Of a stretch of 64,000 nucleotides of DNA, positions 1-13,374 are shown one piece after another. Position numbers and translations under genes: made by a program. The stretch spans positions 1,302,001-1,366,000 of the forward strand of contig CM030338.1 of the NCBI GenBank assembly GCA_017654855.1, in the 5' to 3' direction. Each line of letters opens with the position of its first letter. Within the stretch, counting starts at the first letter, position 1. The notes under the pieces are model-generated. The model was given only the letters and a program-made list of their open reading frames with translations. It was not told where the DNA came from and ran no database searches. The DNA is from Podospora anserina (Eukaryota).

Positions 1-3000
1 ACTACCACCCACTGCTGCCGCATTCCCGGACGCTACAGACGATATCAGACCCTTGACACTTATAAGTCGAGATAAAATGACCATCTTGGGACGATCTCCA
101 AAGTACCTTTTGTTTCGTACCACCCCCAGGTTTCATGGCGCTCTCTCTGAGCATATGCAGTGTGGCACAAGAATACTTGATCCGATCCCAGCCGCTTGAC
201 TGGTGACAGGATAGGATAGGCACGTTTGATGGAAGACGGGAGACGGAAGAGATGGGACAGCAGCCACACCTGGGGTTTGCGCGGCCCATCGCCATCTGCT
301 CTCTCTCCCTCTTAGGCCCAAGGTGAAAGAAGAGAGGAAAGAAAAGGGAAGAAAGTCCGTGGGCTATGCTGCCACTTGCATATGCGCAATGGCCATCAAG
401 AGCGAATGGCTGGTCCGGCTTGTGGTCGGTCGCATGCGACCGGAGCTGAAAGCTGCAGATGTGGACGGTGCAAGCTTACAGCTACACTACGAACAGCGCC
501 ACATCTGGAGTAGTGTTACAGAGCACCGTACCGTAATTACACGGCTGTAAGTCTGAACGTCCGCCAAGAGAAAAGGTCGTCAGACTAACACCCGGCTAGA
601 CTCGCCCTGCTGAAGACTCCTCCTGGCTGGCGTGGCTGGCAGCAAGCTGTTCAGACTCTCTCATGACAGGCCTCTTGACAACAAGTCAAATCATGCAGCA
701 AAATGACTCCTTTTTCGTGTTTCGCTAGTCGAAGAGTAAATGACGCGTCCCGCAGCAAGAAGAGCGCGTATCACAGCTCCCGGCCGATCGTAGGACTTTT
801 TTTTTTTCATGGGGATTTTTAGTTGCATGAGCCGTGAGGAGTCATATCGATATCCGCCACCGCCCAGAATCTATATGAGTGGCCCGTCGAGATCCCACCA
901 GAAACTGGAACTGGTAACTCGGGTAAACAGTGAGGCGTCAACTGAATACCTTGTGTGAATGGCTCCAGGACTTTCAGATAACGTCCGTAGTCGGGCAGCC
1001 AAGTCTGCAGCCAACTCTTGTTCTGAAAAAGAGCGTCGTTTCTGACTTGTGACTTGTGAGTTGTGATATTAACAGAATCACCGTCACTCCAAGGTACCAT
1101 CCGCTCCCTTATTAGCGACACTGGCGTCCTGAGAAAGATAAACTGCCATGCAACTGCATGGTCTAGATTAAACACTGTTCGTGTTGCCGCTGAATGGACA
1201 GACGGTCGCTTGAAAAGGCCGGTGCCGTTTGTGATGGGCCACCTCTTCAGTCATGCATGAAGCTCGCTTGGTGAGGCCTCAAGAGCCATATTGTGCGGTC
1301 CATCACGCACACCATCTGGGTCTTGATGGCTTGGGATGGGGTTCCCCCTCCTTGCAAGCCGCCAAAAAACGTTCGAGAAGAAAGCAGCCGGAGCATGTTG
1401 GCGGCGGGGAAAAGACAAAGGCGTCATTTGCCATGGCGAGATTGTCTAAATCTCAAGCCATCGTCGTGATCACAAGATAGACCTCAATCTTCCCTTTGCC
1501 CAGTGATATGAAGCGGTGCCCTAGCCCGAAATCATGACGAGATGACAGAGACGGCGTAGCCATGTTGAAGGCTGCCCTGGAACCAAGGCTCCAACCCCAT
1601 GACTGCATATCGTAAGATTAGGAGTCCTTCCGCAGTAGACGCAAGAAGCGAGGAGCCGAAAGCGAAAAAGATATCAACATCAGCTTGGCCAGAAGGAAAC
1701 ATGAAACACACAAGCGCGCTGCTGGAGGCGTTCTTCTCTTGTCTCAACTCCCTCAGTGGCTGACTGTCTGCCCATCAATAAAAGATCCCGCCCACCCCTC
1801 CCGAACATGCCGGTCTTGTTGCTGGAAATCTTGCTCGACGCCACACGTTCGACTTTCTTGGGCCCAGCACTCGACCAGTATGTCCCGATCTGGGCATGCC
1901 GCAGGAGGAGGATGGGACCCAGCCAGCCGGCTACACGTCCTGCGATGGCGATATTCGACACCGACTGGTCCCTTTGTCGAATTGTGCGGCCAGGGGTGGG
2001 TTCCGGAAGGAGATGTTCGAGTTGCAACATGCCACTGGCATCCCACTGGCACCCCCAAACGGGCAATATAGAGTGCAGGAGAGGGGGGAAGCATCGCCAG
2101 TGAATGCCAGCCTCTCGTCGGTCCCGTGTCATGGATGACAAGAGCAGGCATGGCATGGCAGACCATGCTAGCGCAGAAGGTGAGCAAAAAGGTGTGTAAG
2201 TTGGGATCCCTGCTATTGAGCCTCATTGGCTGCCGGCCTGACGCCCTCCTCCGGCCGCCATCTTGGAGAAAGACCGAGGATACGGCAGGCGATTGGGTGA
2301 AAAACTCGAAACGAGGGCAAAAAGGGTGGTGCCGCTTTGCGACGTTACTGCAGACTGGGGTGGCCTAGAACCACCTACCTGACGTCCAGCCTGCCAGATT
2401 AGAAGTGAGCGCGAGGCTGCTGTAGAACCGGCATCTGTTCCTGTCTGGGGTGTCAAATCTCCGTATACTTGGTTATGATAATCATGGTGGAAATGATGAC
2501 GATGCTGATACTGATGCTTGGTGTTGATGCTGCTGGAAGCTGAACGTGGAGCTAGCTGCTGCTGTGAGGGCGAGGTGAAGTCTGTGAGAGAATGCCCAGA
2601 CCTGCCCAGCTGAATTACGAATACATGGAGAGGGGTTTGTGCGTATCCAAACTTGGAAGCACGGTGGATCTGCAGCCTTTTCTCTCTGCAGCCCCACTGT
2701 TTCCAACAACGCAACTACACTTATACACACTGTCACTACAAATTGTGGCTTGGCTCATGTGGCTTGCGTATTCTTTCCTCTCTTGTGTGACGGGAGGTGA
2801 GGCAAAAAGTGCCGTCTCTTGCCGCGCAGCAGCGCACTCGTGACTGACAGTCACTTGACTTCGGCCGGGCTTCCTTCTTCAGGCCAGTGTCCCGTGATCG
2901 CAAATATTCCTGGATCTCTGTGAACCTCCTGTTTCGGCCAAACACGCCCACTGCCCACTGCCCACTGGCAGATCGTCTCTTGCTCGCGACCACAGTGCGG

Positions 3001-4509
3001 ATCACCAATGGCTTCAGCTCGATAACGCCTGATTCTGGACTCCCTTGTTTTACTCTGCGTGGGGTATCATGACCCAATGAAGCCCCAGCGGGTATCGAGA
3101 AACAAGACAATTCGACGCGAGGAACTTTCAAGAAAGGAGAAAGGTCACAAAGCTTGGAAACCGGGTTCGGAATGGACAACCCCGCTGGCGAGGGCGAGGA
3201 AGAGGAAGGCGAGTTTACCGCAAGAAAGAAAAAACATTCCTCCCTGTTTTTTGCCGTGATCCTTCGCCGTCTTCACCGCTAGAAGACCGGTTTATCGCCT
3301 CAAACCCAAGTCCCTTGTGATCATGACTCCTCGACTTGAAATTTCTCAATAAGGAATCCCCCATCAACGGGGGGTTGACGGATATCGGATATTGGCCCCT
3401 CCTTGTCTTGTCCGTCTCCCGTCTCCCGTCGTGCCGGGCGGGCCTTGGCACCGTTGACGTCACTCTTTTGGCTTGTTAAGATCAAGCCTGTCAGGGGTCT
3501 GTCAAAGTCAACATCAACGTCAAAACCGAACTGTATTACAACACACGCCCGGCGATCTGCTAACAAGCCTCACCCCGGCCTGCCCGCCTGATGCCCAACG
3601 TTTTTTTTCTTCAATTCAAAGCCAGGGCAACTGAGGCGAAGCCGACCTTGAAAAAGGTGAAATGTGGGGCCGCCCCGTTGCCCTCGGAGGCAGCCGACTC
3701 AGCCGACCGACCGATCGACTGCCGAACAACCCTCACCTTAACGTGGCCGCCACGTACACCCGGTAACTCTAACGCCACATCTGAAGAGATCCGAGAAAAG
3801 GGTGTCATTCATCATTCAAGCGAGAGAAAAAAAATCATCTATTTTCAGCTGGCTCAGGGTAGCGCAAGGGAAAAACTTTAAGGATTGCCCCTCCCTCTTT
3901 TTCAAAGTTACGCAACCCCTGAATGTGGGGAAGCCTAGCTCGCTACGCTACACCCGAGGGTTAGGGTCGGGGATAAGGGCTCCCTCGAGCGCCCTCTCAA
4001 ATGGTCACCGATCAGAGATCGCTTCGGTCAGCAGGTGCAAGGCCTCGTCACTGCAGCCAACTCACATGTAGGCCCAGCCAACAACTTCCAATCTACCTAC
4101 ATGACAGCCGATCAAGGGAGTTTATGCATACAGCATGCAAACACGGAGAGGAGGACCTGTCGGTATACCCGGAAGCAAAGGCAGATTTTTTGGGAATGCT
4201 GTCTCGGCAGTTGTACCTAGACCGGTCTGCCTTATGCTGGTGGTGGTCAGCACCTTGGTTGGGACAGCCCCACATTCGCTGCCTGTTAGCGTACCGACGC
4301 AAGGGAAAGGGGGCTCAGCCCAGCGGTTCAGTACTGGCACTCTTTGCAGCCGAGGCCGGTGAGATAGGCGGTGGGTTGGGTTACTCGATCTTTTATTGAC
4401 GTTTGGAATGTTGCTTCTTTGAAGATGAAAGTGTGCTCGTGACAACTGGGAATGTACAGCGACAACACACGATTCCTAAAATATATCTTATTTTCCATCT
4501 TTCTACTCA

Positions 4510-4589
4510 AAGACATATACCATCCGTAAAGGCATAAACTCACCGTCGAAGACATATACCATCCGTAAAGGCATAAACTCACCGTCGAA
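4510..4589. repeat. Perfect 39-bp direct tandem duplication (2 copies)
   Basis: aagacatataccatccgtaaaggcataaactcaccgtcg occurs at 4510-4548 and again at 4549-4587; lies in the presumed 3' UTR of the 8071-4733 gene. Confidence 0.95.
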
Positions 4590-4732
4590 CTGCTGTGGTC
4601 ATATTTTGACCGCTGAATAGCCCAACACCAAACCAGAGAATGTAAACAAAACCAAACAGAATATTCCACACACATCCCAACTTCACCCGCCCAAATCCCA
4701 TGTAATAATCCTTCCCCCCGCACCTTCCCCCT

Positions 4733-5298
4733 TTACCAATCCCCCAACCCAGCAATCCCCTCCTCCTCCTCCTCCTCCTCCTTCTTATCATCATCCCACC
4801 CACCATCATTCCCCCCTTTATCCCCCCCCTCTTTCTTCTTCCCATCATCACTCTTGTTCCCACCCGTAACATTGCTAGCAACAGCAGCAACTAATCCCCC
4901 CAACCCGCCCAGCCCCCACCCAAAACCCCCAAGTTTATTCCCCAACTTCACCCCGCCATCATCCTCCTTCCCAACAGGAGTAGGAGTCCTAAACTCCCCC
5001 TCTGCCTTTTCCTTCCCCTTATCCACCTTCTTTTTCTCAGGGGAGTTTGGCCCCGGTGTCTCGTTCCATGAGCCAGGCATGGACATCTCACTGTTGTTTG
5101 GTTTCTTCTTGTCCCACGGATTCGGATCGACGTTTTCGTTGTCCGAGTCGAACTGGTCTTGGGGTGAAGGTTGAAAGGTGAGTTTTTTGCGGGAGGATTT
5201 TTTGCTGGTGTTGGTTCCTGTGAGGGAGGCGGGTTTGGGGAAGGTGAAGGGGGAGGGGGGTTTAGAGGGGGGGTTGGGGTCGGGCCAGGTGTTGTTGC

Positions 5299-5353
<55 letters not shown>

Positions 5354-5501
5354 CTCGTTGCCCCAGCTGTTGTCATTGGAGGTATCATTGTTGTCACCCG
5401 AGTTGTTGTTGTCATCGTTGCCCCAACTGCCGCCGCCGTTGTTGTTGTTCTCAGCCGAGGTATCATTGTTATTGTTGTCGTTGCCCCAGCTGTTGTCGCC
5501 G

Positions 5502-5535
<34 letters not shown>

Positions 5536-8071
5536 CGTTGGAGGTATCGTTGTTGTCCCCAGAGGAGTTATTCTCATTACCCCAACCGCCACCCGCATTG
5601 TCATTGGAGGTATCGTTGTTATCCCCAGAGGTGTTGTTTTCGCTGCCCCAACTGTCGCCGCCGCCGTTGTTGTTGAAGGTATCATTGGAGTTGTCGTTGG
5701 AGTTGTCGTTGGAGTTGTCGTTAGAGTTGTCGTTGGAGTCATCATTTCCGTTGCCCCAACCCCCCCAACTGTTGTCATTGGAGTTTTCGTTGGAATTGTC
5801 GTTTCCGTTACCCCAGCCGCCACCGTTGTTGTCATTGTTGCCATCAGACCCGGCCTTGGTGCTCTCGGTGAACTGAACAGCAGGAGAGGCCGACCTGCCC
5901 TTCTTCCCTCCTTTCTTGTTCTTCCCTCCTTTGCTGTTACTTCCGCCCTGGTTGTTACCTCCGCCCTGGTTGTTACCTCTGCCCTGGTTGTTACTTCCGC
6001 CCTGGTTGTTACCTCCACCGTTGTTCCCTCCACCGCCCTTGTTGCCGCCAGAGCCAGAAGCCACATTCGGAGTTCCCTGCTGCGCCCTAGGTGTCCCCCG
6101 GCCCTGGCCCTGCCCCTGTGACGCCGAATCATTCGGCCATATCGGAGGCACAGCGTTCAACTGCCACGACCCCGGCATCTGCTGCCACTGCTGGTACCCA
6201 GCCATTCCCTGCGGAGTAAAGTTGTGAGGACCGTAAGCCCCAAGCTGCACGGGAGGCTGCATCACAGGCGGCGGAGGACCCTAGCCTCCCCACGCAGGAC
6301 CGCCAGGTTGATGGGACCAGTAGGGATTCGGGCAGTCTGTGTGGATGATGTTGGTCACAGGATGCACAACACCATCCCCGGCGTAGCCATAGTTCTGGAA
6401 CTGGGGGTGGATAGGAGCCGGCGGAAAGCCCGCAGGCACAGCGGGCTGCTGAGCTGGGCTGTCAAAGACTTGGACATGACCGTCTAGGTAGTAGGCGTTG
6501 CGCGGTGGTTGGACGGTGGCTGAGCGAGAGGGGACATGCTGGACGGTGGCTGATCCCTGGGCGTTGTTCGAAGACTGGTTGCCACCGTCGGGTTTCTGCT
6601 GATCAGACTTGTTCTGGTTTTGGCTGGTACCAGAGCTGTCGCCGGCAGCCTTCTTGTTGTTCTGGGGGTTATCCTGCTTGCCCCTGTCTCCCTTTTTATC
6701 GTCCTTCTTGCCCTCCTGCCTCTCGTCCTTCTTGTCCTCTTTCTTGCCCTCCTGTTTCTCGTCCTTCCTGGCATCCTTGTTCACACCCTTCTTGTCATCC
6801 TGCTTATCATCCTTTCCGTCCTTCTTTCCATCCTTCTTGCCCTTGTCATTCCCCGAAGAACCACCCTTCTTCTTCAGACAGTCTGTAAGCAGCGCCGCGG
6901 CTATCTCCTTTCTAGTTCGGGGCTTGCTCAACTCCCGGCCCAGGAGTCTCCGACCCTGAATGCAGTTCTCGCAGCCGCATGTGGCATGGGGCTCCAGATC
7001 GGGGGTGACAAAGTCGTCAGGAGCGCCCGCGTCTTGCTTCTTCGTGTTGTGCTGGCCCGACTTGTTGTCTTTTGACTTGTCCTCGGTCTTATTGTCATCA
7101 GCCTTCTTCTTGTCCTCTGCTTTCTTGTTGCCCTCGACCTTCTTCTCCGCCTCCATGGTCTTGCTGGACTCACCCTTCTCGTCAGGCTCGGGAGGGGCCA
7201 GCTTAGCCTCGGCCGGCGTCTTGCTGCTCTGAAGCGGCACCTTTGCGACAAAAGTCTCGCCCTCGCCGTCGCTGCCCGTATAGACCTCAACCTGAAATTT
7301 CGGCTTCTTGGCTGTGGTGTTGACAGGTTTCTCCGTCTCTTGAGTCTTCCTGACCTCCTTGGGTTTGGCAGAGTCAGCCTTCTTCTCCTCCTTTGACGGA
7401 GATGACCTGGGATCGCTCGGTTTGCCCTTTGTTTGTTGTTGCTTGTAAGCCTTGGAAACTGCCAACGCTATAGCCATGGCGCGCTCCTCCTCGTCTGAGT
7501 CAACGTCTGAAAAGATCTCGGAAAGTCGCTTGGTCGTGGCCGCCTCGATCTCTGCCTTCCTCTTGGCCTCCTCTTCTTTCGCTTTCTCTTTGGCCACCTT
7601 CCTGTCTTGAGCAGCGTGAACCGTAGCAATTGTTCTAGCCTCAGCTCGGGCAATGGCAACACTAGCCTTTTTAAGTGCGGCGGCAGCGGCAGCAGTAGCC
7701 TCGATGTCGACGGAAGCCGTCTCGGCTTGGGCAGCTTGGGCGGCTCTTGCTTTGTGACAACTCTTGTGCTCTCGAGGATGACGGGACTCGCCATGCTCGC
7801 GGTGCTCGTGGTGCTCGTGGTGCTCACTGACTCGATGCCTGGTGGGCGGCTGAGCAGTAGTCGAACCTTGTCGATCGTAGTATCTGTCTCGGGATGGGGA
7901 CCGATGCCTAGAGGGGGGCCGGGGTCTAGAATCGCGGCGCCTGGAATCTCTGCCTCTGTACTCTTTCTCCTCTGATCTCCGTCTCTCCGGCTCGGGTGTT
8001 GTCAGTCTCTCCTTTTCGGTGCGAGTGAGATTGCGGCCCATAATCCACTCCATCATGGTATTGGGAGGCAT
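4733..8071 (-). CDS. Low-complexity protein of about 1112 aa interrupted by one in-frame TAG (6283-6281); candidate editing-corrected premature-stop gene. Charged N-terminal half with UIM-like and CxCxxC motifs, N/G-rich WG-repeat C-terminal half
   Basis: ORFs 6281..8071 and 4733..6265 are in the same frame, joined by ...TGG GGA GGC TAG GGT CCT CCG CCG CCT GTG ATG... (PAWGG*GPPPPVMQPP). No convincing GTRAGT donor or CTRAC branch point flanks the TAG. Final stop is TAA at 4735-4733. Confidence 0.8.
5289..5352. repeat. (GTT)n microsatellite encoding poly-Asn on the minus strand; second tract near 5500-5533
   Basis: Long gttgttgtt run, in frame as AAC codons in the 8071-4733 gene. Confidence 0.95.
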
Positions 8072-8929
8072 GGCTGCGGTCAGCGAGTCGCAGCGAGCAG
8101 TGCGACTTTGGTGATGTTGGAGACAAAAGGAAAAGTCAAAAAACGACTATCAATCTCCTGAAGTGATAGTGACGGAACGGAAACAGACTGGTAGCGGTGT
8201 TGAAGGGCGAAGAACAAGGAAAGAATCGAGAAGGAGCCTCTCGATCCGAGCGGGTGTTTGGAGAAAAGGAAACAAGTCGGGGAGGGGCCAACGGCCCTGA
8301 GTGAAGAGGAGAGAACGACGAGAGGGGAAATACTTGGCCTGGTGTCGAACAGTAACCAGAGATGAAAGTAGCCGCAGAAAGCAATTTGCTGTGAAGGAGA
8401 GTATGCGCTGAAAACTGTAGTCGCAAGGTAGGAAGAAGCTTTGTATTTGCAGGAAGAATTGGCTATTACAGCAAAGTCGGTGGTGGGGGGTGGAAGGGAG
8501 ATTTTTGCAAGAAAGGCGGGTCTCGTTGCTGGAAATTCACTTGAGATGGAAAGGTAAGGGAGCAAGTCGAGTGTTTGAGGAAGTCGCTCAGAAGGTCGTG
8601 GGTCTGCCCGTAGTTCTCATGTCGTCGACTGATGCCCTGCAGTTTGAGGCTCAATGGAGATGCCCCATGGCCCGTGTCAGTCGACATCTGCCATTGAGAT
8701 TCCCGTCGAGTCTCTCTCACTGACTCGAAGCCTCCCATTCCTCGTCGAAACCACGCAGTTTGAGGCCCCGTTCAACCACAAGTAACCAACACAAACAAGA
8801 CCTTCGAGACAAAGAGACGCAGAAAAGAAAGAAAATACATTAACCCATCAACCCTTATGTATCTCACAAGTTCAAAGCTCTCATCATGTACCGTGTTCCA
8901 TAGTCCCGACTCATCTTCATCACCACCAA

Positions 8930-9745
8930 CTACAGCTTAGCCCTCTCCCTCCTCTCCCTCTCCTCCCACTCCCTCTCCCCCCTCCAATTCCTCCACAACC
9001 CCCACCCCCCAACAACCAACGCCAACGGAGGACAAACCCACAAAACCCACCCCCACCACCTCGGGCTCCCCCTCTCCACCTCCTCCATAACCCTCCTCAA
9101 CTCCCTCTTCAGATCGTCCTTATCCCCATCATTCCAAACCACCACCCCCCCACCAAAAGCCGCCCTCTCAACCTTTTTCATCACCCCCCCCTGACTCCTA
9201 ACCCGATTCTCCGCATCCTCCCTGCTCAAATGCCCATCCCGCCTCATCAACCTCTCCATCTGAACCTCCTCATCCCTCACCCCAACAACCATAACCCGTC
9301 CCACATACCGATCAAGCTTACTCTCAAACAACAACGGCACATCCAACACCACCGCCCTTTTCCCTTTGACATACTCCCTCACCACAGCCCAAAACATGGC
9401 CTTCCTCACAGCAGGGTGCACAATCCCGTTCAGCACCCCCCTGTCCTTCGCCCTCTCCAGACTAGTACCGAAAACCCTCTTCCCGAGCGCAGGTCGGTTC
9501 AACGGGCGGCCTTTTCCGTTTGGTCCATTCTCCGGCATGTCCTCTGACACAGGGACGAGTAAGTCGGGTGTGCTGGGGAGGAAGTGCTTCACAATGGCAT
9601 TGTAACCCGGCGTGCCCGGCTCGACGACCTGGCGGGCGATCAGGTCGGCGTCGATGATGGGGAGGTTGTAGGGTGGCTGCGATAAAAGGGAGGAAACGGT
9701 TGATTTGCCCGTGGCTATCGAGCCTGTGAGGCCTATGAGCAGCAT
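8930..9745 (-). CDS. CAB5: Dephospho-CoA kinase (CoaE family) with C-terminal hydrophobic segment
   Basis: MLLIGLTGSIATGKSTVS P-loop, IIDADLIARQVV, LNGIVHPAV, VVLDVPLLFES; ATG at 9745 in AAAAATG context. Confidence 0.93.
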   Translation of the reverse strand: MLLIGLTGSIATGKSTVSSLLSQPPYNLPIIDADLIARQVVEPGTPGYNAIVKHFLPSTPDLLVPVSEDMPENGPNGKGRPLNRPALGKRVFGTSLERAKDRGVLNGIVHPAVRKAMFWAVVREYVKGKRAVVLDVPLLFESKLDRYVGRVMVVGVRDEEVQMERLMRRDGHLSREDAENRVRSQGGVMKKVERAAFGGGVVVWNDGDKDDLKRELRRVMEEVERGSPRWWGWVLWVCPPLALVVGGWGLWRNWRGEREWEERERRERAKL

Positions 9746-10633
9746 TTTTGGCAAAGTTTCTTTCTTTAATGACTTTTGGTGAATATGAAATTGATGATAG
9801 GGGTTGTGAGATAATGGCAAGAGTTGATGAATGAGTACAAGTTTCAGTATATGTGAACTAATAAAATGGGAAGCGGGTTTCGTTAGCCAGTGCCCATGGC
9901 AATCGTATGATGATGCGGGGAGGAGGATCCTCTTCTTCCTCCAACACCTTTTTGCCGAGCTTCTCCAAGCTGCTTCCCCCGATTCAATCGACAGCTGATG
10001 AGCTCAGCCTTGGCACAAGAGGTAAAACCCGCCTTCGTCATCGCAAAACGGACAATGGCGTGCCCGGCACTAACACTTTCACCCCAATTTCCCCACCAAA
10101 ACTGTTAACATCCCGCCAAGCCGGGTCAAATCTGGGGTTCGCTTTGCATGTGACATCTGTGGCGTGCTGTCGGGGACCCTTGGCCTTTTGTAGCGGCCCG
10201 CTTTCAGCCTCACAGCTCCGTTTTTGACCTCCTTCAACCTTCACATCTTCACCAGGCACTTCACGGAGCATAAAAAAAATATCATAGGAATGTATTGAGC
10301 AGTATAAAACCAGCGCAGAAACCATCCCATAAACGCCAGCGATAAAAAACCGTTGCCCATTCCCTTTAGTACCATCGCCAAACCGAAAAAGAACCCATGC
10401 CCATCCCATGATACCATTTCCATCCATCTAAAAGATGACCATCCATGAGACCCTGACGTGAACTCAATCCTGTACCATCTAGAGGAAATGATCGAACCGA
10501 CTAGATTAAATAAAGGCAACGCAGCCAAAGGAGATCTGCCTCAAAGACAGCAGATTGTTCATCAAAGGCATCGCTAACAACACCAGCTCGTTAGCCAACG
10601 TGCTCCACAGTCAACACCAAAGTATACTCACCT

Positions 10634-12052
10634 CTAGACATCAGGAGGAGCCTCAAGACGCTTGGCATAAAACCAACCATCCCTCACATACCACTTGTGC
10701 TTGAGCCGATCAATCTGACGACGCTGATAGAGACCCCAATGGCCATCCACCTCCTCCACCCACCACTCCTTGTACGGGTCCCTGTTGGCCGGCATAAAGT
10801 CCTGAGGCTCGAAGCATCCCTCCTGCTTGGCATGCTCAATGTCAGCAGCCAATCGCTCGCTCTGAGTGAGGCCAATGCCCAAGGCAGGCTCAAAGTGGAC
10901 GTGAGGAGGCTGCGCACCAGGAGTTGGGCTACCAGGGAAAGCTTGGTGGCCGTGACCGTTCGGCATCTGCATCAACGGATTCATGCCAGGCTGCATCCGA
11001 GAGTAGGCAATGCCGGCGCCGGGGAAGCTGGGCAGAATGGGACCACCTTGAGGGCCAAACATGCCCATGGCAGGCATACCAGCGCCGGGCATGGCGGGCA
11101 TGGCAGGCATGGTGACGCCGGCGGGGGACGACACCACAGGTCCCTGAGGACCCATCATGTAGCCTCCTTGGAGGGCATAACCACCCATCTGGCACAAGGG
11201 AGTGTCTTGACCGGTGACCTGTGAAAAACTTGATTAGCAAGTGTCGCACAAAATCTGACTTGAAAAAGCACATCAAAGACCACTCGGTCGCCTGTTCGAT
11301 GACTGAATCGAAACAAAAAGTCGGAAACTGCTGGCGTCAATTACCTGAGGAAAACCAGCAGCCAGGCCAGCGAAATAAGCCATGCTAGGGGGATCCCGAC
11401 GAGGGATGTACGTCTGGGTCATAGGTCCAAACTGGGTGGAGGGCAGCTGGGGCTGAAAGTGAATCCCATTGGGGTTCAGGACAGGAGGGGCAGCCGGGAA
11501 GGCACGCATTGAGCGTAGAGGGGTGGTCGGCCTGGCGCCATTGTTGCCGTTCTGGTCATCTTGTTCCGACTTCATCTTGCTGGTAAAAGGACTCGCCTGA
11601 GGATGGGGTGGGAAATCGAGGTCGAAGCGAGCCCTTTTATGAGGAATCAAGCCGACAGCCGGGGCAGGAGCTGCTCCCATAGGTTGCCGGGCCGCACCTG
11701 TGCCCTCATCGTACCCATCTGGTTTGCGTTTGAGGCTGATAATCTCCGCCCCCAATAATTCCATTTTTCGATCCACCTCCCCGCTCTCCCCATCTCTGAT
11801 GGCCATCTCCCGTTCAAAATCTTCCGCCGCGTCTTGAACCACATGTCCCAAGACTTTATATTCAAGCTTGGTCGGGAGCGCATCGGGGTTCTTGGTGAGC
11901 CCTTCAAGTCTGAGGTTCAGTATCTCGCAACCAGTAGCTAGGTGGTCAATGGTATCAGAAAGCTCGGCGAGGAGCTCATTCTGTTCTTTGATTTGGTCGG
12001 CAGAGTCGTCGTCCTTGTTCGGCCCAGAGGCGGGGCCTCCTATGGTGAGCAT
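10634..12052 (-). CDS. Hypothetical protein, 2 coding exons (12052-11345, 11218-10634); Pro/Met/Gly-rich middle and Trp-rich C-terminal domain
   Basis: Intron 11344-11219 (CAG|GTAATT...GCTAAT...CACAG|GTC) joins ORFs 11273..12100 and 10634..11197 in frame. CAAAATG start chosen, but the start is uncertain. C-terminus FEPQDFMPA...WWVEEVDGHW...KWYVRDGWFYAKRL looks like a folded domain. Confidence 0.7.
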
Positions 12053-13374
12053 TTTGAATGTGTGGCGATCGCCGGTTGTGTGGGTGTTGCGCCGATACAA
12101 AAGTCGACAGGACCGCAGAAGCCGGCGATCTTTTTATCCTCAACAACAACACCCCCATTCATTTGAGCGGGTCCTCAATTGCTCCAGGAGCTCACTTGAG
12201 CTATGGCCATTGGAAATTATTGTGGGTTCAACCTGGCCATCTTCACTCACTGACTTCAGTGCTCAACTTGCTCTCCCAGCCGCCTGGAGGTGCCAGCTGG
12301 GAGCAACTAACCCTTATCAACACCGCGTACGTACCGTATCTCGAAGAACCCACATGTTTCTGGTGCGGCTCCAGTGCCAGCGGTAGCGTTGGGGATTGCT
12401 ACGCTGGTTGCTCCCGCGTTCGTGGGTTGTCTTGGTGATTGGCCAGCAGGGGAGGCACATGTCGTCGAAGTGAGTTGATGGTTGGGGTTGGATCAAAATG
12501 TGAATTTTGAAGACTCTACTTGGGTACGGAGAAGAGAAAGGAGACAAATCCTCAGGACGACCTCAGATCACAAGACAGAGCACAGTGCGGAGATCAGCCA
12601 GCAAGGAAGGCACCACGGGAGCAGTCAGGTCTTGGTCACACCGGCCAGTGAGTATCGTATGTTGTCGCTGATAGCACTGTGTAGTCATCAAGCTGTTCAG
12701 AGGGCCATTTTACAGCTATTCAGATTCACAAAGGAGAGCTGGAAGACGGTCTTTTGAGTGGACTCTGGTCAACGAACAACACACGATGAGCTCTGTGGAT
12801 TTTATGAATCTCTGCCTGATGCCAGATGGAAGGACTTACAACCCCTGAATTGTGTCACCTTGGCATCAGACAACCCCTTTCGATCCGGACCTCCCATATA
12901 TAACAGTAGACATTTCGACTGCCTGGCACCATAACACCCAAAAATAGTCCGGCAAAATGCCACCAAGCTGATCAAAATATGCCACATACCAATTCGTCCT
13001 GTCCCTTCACCCCAGAGGGAACAAATGATTCTATATGACCACCAAAACACCGCTATTATACAATTTCCATTGGGAGGAGAGAATACCCTTGCGCTATGCA
13101 TAAACCCGTCCGCCACCCTAGGTACCACCCCTGGCCGAGTTTTTCCCACATTCATCTTCGTACACATCACCATCGAGCCCTCCGTAAGCTGAATTTACAT
13201 ATAGCAACCGCAAGGTGGGCCGGGCACCAAGTTTCGAGGCAAGTCTGCTGCGATCTTGGGTCGATCAAAGAAGAGATTTATCGTCGGCGAAGCTCACAAG
13301 GGCTCCCGTAGATGCCATCGAGTCATCTCGTTTATTTTCGTAGGAAGTGCGATCACGATCAACATGGTCCTGCT

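Follow-up and report, generated by a model that had tools for sequence, protein, structure and literature searches.

A gene on the minus strand of the 64,000-nucleotide (nt) stretch of Podospora anserina DNA analyzed here (assembly GCA_017654855.1, contig CM030338.1, positions 1,302,001 to 1,366,000; hereafter the window) is probably a premature-stop-correction (PSC) gene, in which adenosine-to-inosine (A-to-I) editing of an internal stop codon would release a conserved tail of tryptophan "stickers". Its frame begins with an ATG at position 8071 and comprises 1112 codons, interrupted only by the TAG at codon 597 (Table 1). Direct support comes from the frame itself, its codon bias, unspliced contigs across the stop, an uninterrupted look-alike at the same genomic place in a distant fungus, and the conservation of Trp residues between two such species. 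For the editing, its stage specificity, the disorder of the protein, and the partner of the tail, the following describes what we infer.

The sequence behind the TAG is very likely a real coding sequence, since it is stop-free over 515 codons and its codon bias equals that of the N-terminal half. Base-shuffled copies of the tail contained 20.4 stops on average in this frame, and 0 of 5,000 were stop-free. The synonymous codon score was 0.093 for the tail and 0.091 for the N-terminal half, compared to -0.02 to -0.11 for 24 non-coding control frames. It should be noted that the antisense mirror frame of the tail scores high as well, which also holds for the N-terminal half. The latter is composed, in order, of an R/S/E-rich start, an Ala-rich stretch, low-complexity K/D/E repeats, a CxCxxC motif, and a P/Q/G-rich end. 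No family was assigned to the read-through protein in a Pfam scan, and domain scans revealed neither RNA-binding nor silencing domains in it.

Four sequencing runs (X1, X9, X10, and X11), which are presumed to be RNA, were available as contigs over positions 4300-12400; strand and stage are not given for these data, transcript starts are invisible in them, and minor variants are lost. Contigs from X1, X9, and X11 span position 6282, the plus-strand position of the candidate adenosine, without a joint and without any other letter, while none of the pieces listed for X10 crosses it. The TAG is therefore neither an assembly slip nor spliced out, and the in-frame UAG lies unspliced within one frame in the contigs of 3 of the 4 runs, with the strand unassigned. 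The use of the TAG as an intron acceptor was ruled out as well, as the contigs have no joint there.

Judged by its predicted context, the stop looks editable. It is flanked by U at position -1 and by G at positions +1 and +3, which matches the preference of fungal A-to-I editing (PMC11156358), and its A is predicted to be unpaired (P about 0.99) in all 6 window sizes used for folding. In folds of 31-61 nt, a hairpin dominates (pair probability 0.68-0.95) that resembles an anticodon arm; among the 809 TAGs of the window, only 2 show such an arm. Sequence and loop thus agree with the preference of Tad2/3, with the arm present in short folds only, and we do not claim that the hairpin has been selected for. 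A-to-I editing is common in Sordariomycetes (PMC11087585, PMC10962958), and ADAT genes go up in perithecia of P. anserina (10.1101/2024.12.09.627484).

Alternatively, the TAG could be a nonsense allele of recent origin, with the tail as a relic whose decay has yet to set in. This would fit the lack of an edited contig as well as a fast-evolving gene with long runs of Asn codons, and the searches of protein libraries gave no orthologue by which the TAG could be dated. However, the 515 codons are free of frameshifts, the periods of all repeats listed in the tail are multiples of three, the TAG lies in an editing-type context, and edited premature TAGs arise repeatedly in Sordariomycetes (PMC10776026). 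We therefore consider a nonsense allele unlikely.

Relatives of the gene were found in a metagenome search that used its upstream neighbor CAB5 as bait; the CAB5 of the window groups with PODANS_7_5290 and other Podosporaceae CAB5. This search gave 26 loci, 23 of which were kept at 51-70% identity and 11 of which extend at least 2.5 kb downstream; L032-L034 (30% CAB5 identity) were dropped, and L019 was left out of the tree. A gene rich in WG dipeptides is the first long ORF to follow CAB5 on the same strand in the loci L010, L011, and L019, which represent two species of one clade with a CAB5 64% identical to that of Podospora. The encoded proteins (788 residues for L010 and 717 for L011, with L019 encoding the same protein as L011) are encoded by uninterrupted open reading frames (ORFs) without a TAG and contain 6-7 WGN, an MPGxW motif, and a terminal Trp. 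Within the 196 kb scanned, frames with at least 3 WG[NS] per 200 codons were confined to these three loci and the window gene, and in the remaining 8 of the 11 loci, CAB5 is followed by other genes or by disordered ORFs that are unrelated.

A profile built from L010 and L011 scored 247.5 against the whole Podospora protein, while local shuffles scored 185-195 and 0, 2, and 4 of 300 reached the score; against the C-terminal half alone, the score was reached by 6 of 200 shuffles. While Podospora shares the type of WG motif with L010 and L011, a unit-by-unit alignment is impossible. In the MAFFT alignment, Phe, likewise an aromatic residue, lies opposite the TAG. Because of position, composition, architecture, and motif order, orthology is likely, and the downstream frame is thus both coding and continuous in relatives, albeit in one distant clade and with orthology based on position and architecture.

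Between L010 and L011, the ratio of nonsynonymous to synonymous substitution rates is 0.16 downstream of the site that aligns with the TAG and 0.19 upstream of it. Behind this site, 22 of 23 Trp were kept, in comparison to 63 of 73 Gly and 66 of 106 Asn. An initial reading of the window from its sequence alone (hereafter the sequence-only reading), which had proposed that editing attaches an Argonaute-binding or condensate module to the protein, had named a lack of Trp conservation in orthologues among its possible refutations, and this is not what the two relatives show. A corresponding ratio for the WG units within the tail (pN/pS 0.28) was set aside, as these units had been chosen by their Trp.

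Several observations weigh against the gene being an edited PSC gene. The edit, which would appear as T>C at position 6282, was not seen in the three runs whose contigs bridge the site, and neither T>C nor A>G was seen elsewhere in 8.1 kb of the contigs of the four runs. The hairpin is obtained with 26% of synonymous resamplings encoding the same peptide, its arm has a probability of at most 0.16 in folds of at least 101 nt, the local fold is no more stable than shuffles, and 2-3 of 13 other TAGs in the gene region have an equally unpaired A. Regarding the relatives, no Sordariales orthologue was obtained from the protein-library and metagenome searches, the WG gene is carried by only 3 of 11 loci from a single clade, and the profile match to the N-terminal half is not significant (reached by 75 of 200 shuffles). 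Moreover, the best-kept core of the relatives has no significant match in the Podospora protein, and the codon opposite the TAG is TTC and not TGG, in a loosely aligned region. With respect to the missing edit, it is worth noting that editing was 0% for all listed PSC sites of Fusarium at day 1, and for the majority also at day 4 (PMC10776026, Table S1). Since unedited contigs are thus expected outside late perithecia, this result is neutral, and the lack of T>C does not show an absence of editing. From the editing-attached module of the sequence-only reading, a tail that is very likely coding, conserved Trp, and a TAG in A-to-I context were retained, whereas the edit itself is absent from the bridging contigs.

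The searches of protein collections were blank throughout: a 90% protein library queried with residues 340-670, the N-terminal half, and shorter proteins contained no homologue, nor did a 50% protein library queried with the 133 residues around the stop. An exact look-up of 8 protein forms, one of which was a CAB5 control, gave no homologue of the gene, and a metagenome scan with the N-terminal half resulted in 591 pattern matches with zero relatives. In a local phmmer control, simulated relatives were recovered down to 40-50% identity, and CAB5 was present in the collection. Given this power, the blank searches are odd, and we do not read them as absence, as records may be missing. Within the P. 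anserina genome, no paralogue was found beyond the gene itself and one weak Asn-rich match, the core of the relatives was not found by protein query or pattern, and a paired-WGN DNA pattern had 8 matches compared to 4 in the control, with 3 of the 8 lying within this gene.

The features that had been quoted for the tail were confirmed: all 9 WG/GW motifs occur in 4733-6280, together with poly-Asn tracts, GGNNQG and SNDN repeats, two MPGSW motifs, and the terminal Trp, and reading the TAG as Trp does add one more G-W-G. The peptide around the site reads Gly-Gly-stop-Gly-Pro-Pro, with GGT CCT as the codons 3' of the TAG. Gly-flanked Trp make up 10 of the 17 Trp in the C-terminal half (shuffle mean 5.6, P=0.024), and 9 WG dipeptides compare to 3.1 in shuffles (P=0.001; 20,000 shuffles each), whereas 3 of the 596 residues of the N-terminal half are Trp. 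The tail consists to a large part of Asn (22.7%), Gly (18.1%), Ser (9.3%), and Asp (8.5%). Its N/G/D/S block of 186 residues contains 30 Asp/Glu and zero Lys/Arg (net charge -30), with Trp spaced 3-36 residues apart. Multiple spaced WG/GW thus lie in a G/S/N/D-rich region that, by its composition, is presumably disordered.

Prion-like domains typically contain at least 30 N+Q per 80 residues. The tail reaches up to 49 per 80 residues, with 123 windows containing at least 30, and the richest window includes 11 acidic residues. The description of the tail as prion-like therefore holds for the N+Q count, which it shares with N/Q-rich prion-like domains, while the low charge of such domains is not found, as illustrated by the strongly acidic block.

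A more specific, but unlikely proposal is that the module added by editing in the sexual cycle is an Argonaute hook, which would tie the protein to small-RNA silencing; this would be a special case of the PSC reading. In line with it, the tail carries several WG set apart by acidic G/S/N/D spacers, as in known GW hooks, and Trp are selectively retained between the relatives. However, no RNA-binding or silencing domain was found in the protein, and the tail is not tied to editing as such, since the relatives make it without any stop.

With regard to possible partners, the P. anserina genome contains two Piwi-domain genes, one QDE-2-like (C5; E 1.6e-99 to Neurospora crassa QDE-2) and the other, by exclusion, SMS-2-like (C6). 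Key residues of the Trp-binding pockets of human AGO2 are K660 and L694 (pocket 1), F653 (pocket 2), and R688 (pocket 3) (10.1101/2025.10.18.683247), and pocket 3 additionally holds C691 and P700 (PMC9262622). In the HMMER alignment, the SMS-2-like protein retains 0 of the 4 key residues (K660>F, L694>S, F653>W, R688>K). The QDE-2-like protein, for which residues were counted ungapped from the catalytic anchor RDGVSEGQ and whose PIWI domain is interrupted by an intron, keeps R688, C691, and P700; 1 of the 4 key residues is identical, with L694>M, K660>L, and F653>Q, the latter with a Trp one place off. While pocket 3 is described as distinctly conserved in fungi, the GW-binding sites of fungal Argonautes are variable overall and not a shared feature (PMC12477606). 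Furthermore, according to a preprint, MSUD (meiotic silencing by unpaired DNA) was not found in P. anserina and RNA interference (RNAi) was not investigated (10.1101/2024.12.09.627484).

The SMS-2 Argonaute, which the sequence-only reading had named together with MSUD, is therefore the poorer candidate, with 0 of the 4 key residues kept at the sequence level and MSUD reported as not found, whereas the kept pocket-3 residues suggest that a hook for the QDE-2-like Argonaute may be possible. A complex prediction with the SMS-2-like MID-PIWI and a WG block scored 0.00, which is no evidence either way. On balance, an Argonaute is a minority candidate for the partner of the tail. It is more doubtful that the gene encodes an ascomycete GW-type Argonaute adaptor in which the derived Podospora stop places the whole hook under sexual A-to-I control, which would result in a fruiting-body-only Argonaute scaffold or granule, more likely with QDE-2 than with SMS-2.

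The comparison with established hook proteins illustrates both sides. TNRC6/GW182 and the Arabidopsis proteins SGS3 and SDE3 share with the tail repeated, spaced, Gly-flanked Trp in acidic, G/S/N/D-rich disorder (PMC9262622, 10.1101/2025.10.18.683247); the Trp of TNRC6 pairs are ten or more residues apart (PMC9262622), and SGS3 carries an acidic patch (10.1101/2025.10.18.683247). In contrast to these, the Podospora protein has no RRM, UBA, helicase, or polymerase domain, the Argonautes of the host keep few of the human pocket residues, and the likeness is one of composition. Further GW/WG Argonaute-hook proteins are Tas3 of Schizosaccharomyces pombe, Gwo1 of Cryptococcus, NRPE1, and SPT5L. A literature search by titles and abstract starts, excluding subscription journals, revealed no GW-repeat Argonaute partner of filamentous ascomycetes, and a search under guessed locus tags for the gene found nothing.

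Returning to the PSC reading, we suggest that an older single-ORF disordered scaffold gained the TAG in the Podospora line, where it would have been tolerated because sexual-stage editing restores the frame; most Fusarium PSC genes are inferred to have originated in this way (PMC10776026, section 9). In vegetative cells, the N-terminal half of 596 residues would be translated from the mRNA, or the mRNA would be degraded. In fruiting bodies, judging by the context of the stop and the relatives, Tad2-Tad3-Ame1 would turn UAG into UIG, which would be read as Trp and add the tail, giving a presumably largely disordered product of 1112 residues. The tail would thus provide older, conserved, spaced Trp stickers in N/G/S/D spacers, and its function would most likely be multivalent binding to the Trp pockets of a partner and/or the formation of condensates.

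Such gating is of a known kind. The PSC genes of Fusarium graminearum (for example PUK1, AMD1, FgAMA1, and FgRID) share with the Podospora gene an in-frame UAG in a long frame, U at -1, and the loop context, as well as the encoding of disordered hypothetical proteins and uninterrupted relatives elsewhere; disordered regions occur in 50 of 71 Fusarium PSC genes (PMC10776026). Unlike the Podospora edit, which was not seen in the contigs, editing has been measured there (up to 11-100%; PMC10776026). [quoted passage not shown] The link between editing and silencing, presented as undescribed in the sequence-only reading, is thus not new, as FgRID needs premature-stop editing and is required for sexual RNAi (PMC12366691). 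In addition, the edited OLD-ZAO system is repressed by QDE-2 (PMC12754623).

The protein family, on the other hand, seems to be new. Pfam assignments were not found for the L010 and L011 proteins either, and ESM Atlas searches with L011 and the L010 core gave one weak lead, an unnamed Ascomycota cluster of 810 residues (0.77), for L011 and no match for the L010 core. Under the PSC reading, the gene would add to the editing-gated genes, as one that its stop conceals from gene callers, and it points to a so far unnamed family of fungal proteins with a Trp array under selection. If the array does bind Argonaute, it would represent a GW adaptor in a filamentous ascomycete and provide a handle on the roles of RNAi genes in P. 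anserina.

Two further explanations would not require editing. The C-terminal half could be a separate product of a shorter transcript on which translation begins internally, at Met 604, 623, or 632. A contig of X10 over the C-terminal half ends at 6186, just before Met 632, and the depth in this run drops from about 17 over the C-terminal half to 1-7 over the N-terminal half; moreover, start switching has been described for the edited zao-1 (PMC12754623). However, the contigs reveal neither starts nor strand, the three other runs span the TAG in one piece, and the relatives are single ORFs. In X9, a plus-strand GT..AG joint (4641/4913; intron 4642-4912, 271 nt) indicates a spliced antisense transcript that overlaps the 3' end of the gene including its stop codon and could account for the extra depth. 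While this transcript weakens the depth readings, together with the X10 break it keeps the internal start alive as a rather improbable explanation.

Leaky read-through of the UAG by a near-cognate tRNA would supply full-length protein constantly and in small amounts; as edited RNA is not required for this, it would fit the contigs. Leaky stops are typically followed by CAR-YYA, which is not the case for GGT CCT, and the context suits editing better; this explanation is therefore very improbable.

Table 1. Coordinates of the interrupted gene, its features, and its upstream neighbor within the window.
Feature	Position	Strand	Description
CAB5 (dephospho-CoA kinase)	8930..9745	-	upstream neighbor, outside the element; PF01121, E 7.9e-33
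N-terminal ORF	6284..8071	-	596 codons from ATG 8071
Predicted hairpin at the stop	6273..6289	-	5-bp stem and 7-nt loop, A of TAG at the A34 place of an anticodon loop; fold prediction
In-frame TAG	6281..6283	-	codon 597; candidate A-to-I position at plus-strand 6282
C-terminal open frame	4733..6280	-	515 codons and TAA behind the TAG
First MPGSW	6164..6178	-	residues 632-636; Met is a possible restart; sequence
GGNNQG repeats	5935-6016	-	tandem repeat, 18-nt unit x4.6
Acidic N/G/D/S block	5282..5839	-	residues 745-930; 9 Trp, 8 as WG
SNDN repeats	5666-5739	-	tandem repeat, 12-nt unit x6.2
Asn-codon run	5501-5540	-	tandem repeat, x13.3
Asn-codon run	5290-5353	-	tandem repeat, x21.3
Second MPGSW	5066..5080	-	residues 998-1002; sequence
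Terminal Trp	4736..4738	-	common to the uninterrupted relatives L010 and L011; sequence

Some additional observations concern the relatives and their loci. A near-identical core of about 60 residues is shared by L010 (9150-9400, plus strand) and L011 (4330-4570, plus strand); it is without a Pfam or Atlas match, and in Podospora it is no more than faintly recognizable, at residues 510-540. Large disordered ORFs after CAB5 in L018, L026, and L027 were rejected as relatives, as 21, 80, and 59 of 100 shuffles, respectively, reached their scores. The last three residues of the L026 ORF (7638-9425, plus strand) are the same as those of the Podospora protein, while it lacks a WG array and its similarity is not significant. 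A small conserved gene lies a few kb after CAB5 in L010 (11456-11971), L011 (6469-6990), and L015 (11460-12059), the last of which has no WG gene.

Within the N-terminal half, one X10 contig with a depth of 2 indicates a minor GT..AG intron of 86 nt (7088-7173, minus strand), the removal of which leads to a frameshift and a stop at codon 323. At about 7455-7500 (minus strand), residues 192-206 comprise an acidic stretch and, after it, a short Ala-rich segment of helix-like character; together, they resemble the consensus of a ubiquitin-interacting motif but have no Pfam match.

Downstream of the gene, 39 nt are exactly duplicated in tandem at 4510-4589. A deep RNA-type contig of 1636 nt covers about 2900-4540 and ends at 4539; its longest ORF starting with ATG has about 130 codons and a non-coding codon score. 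This region may represent a long non-coding RNA, and the antisense transcript perhaps begins here.

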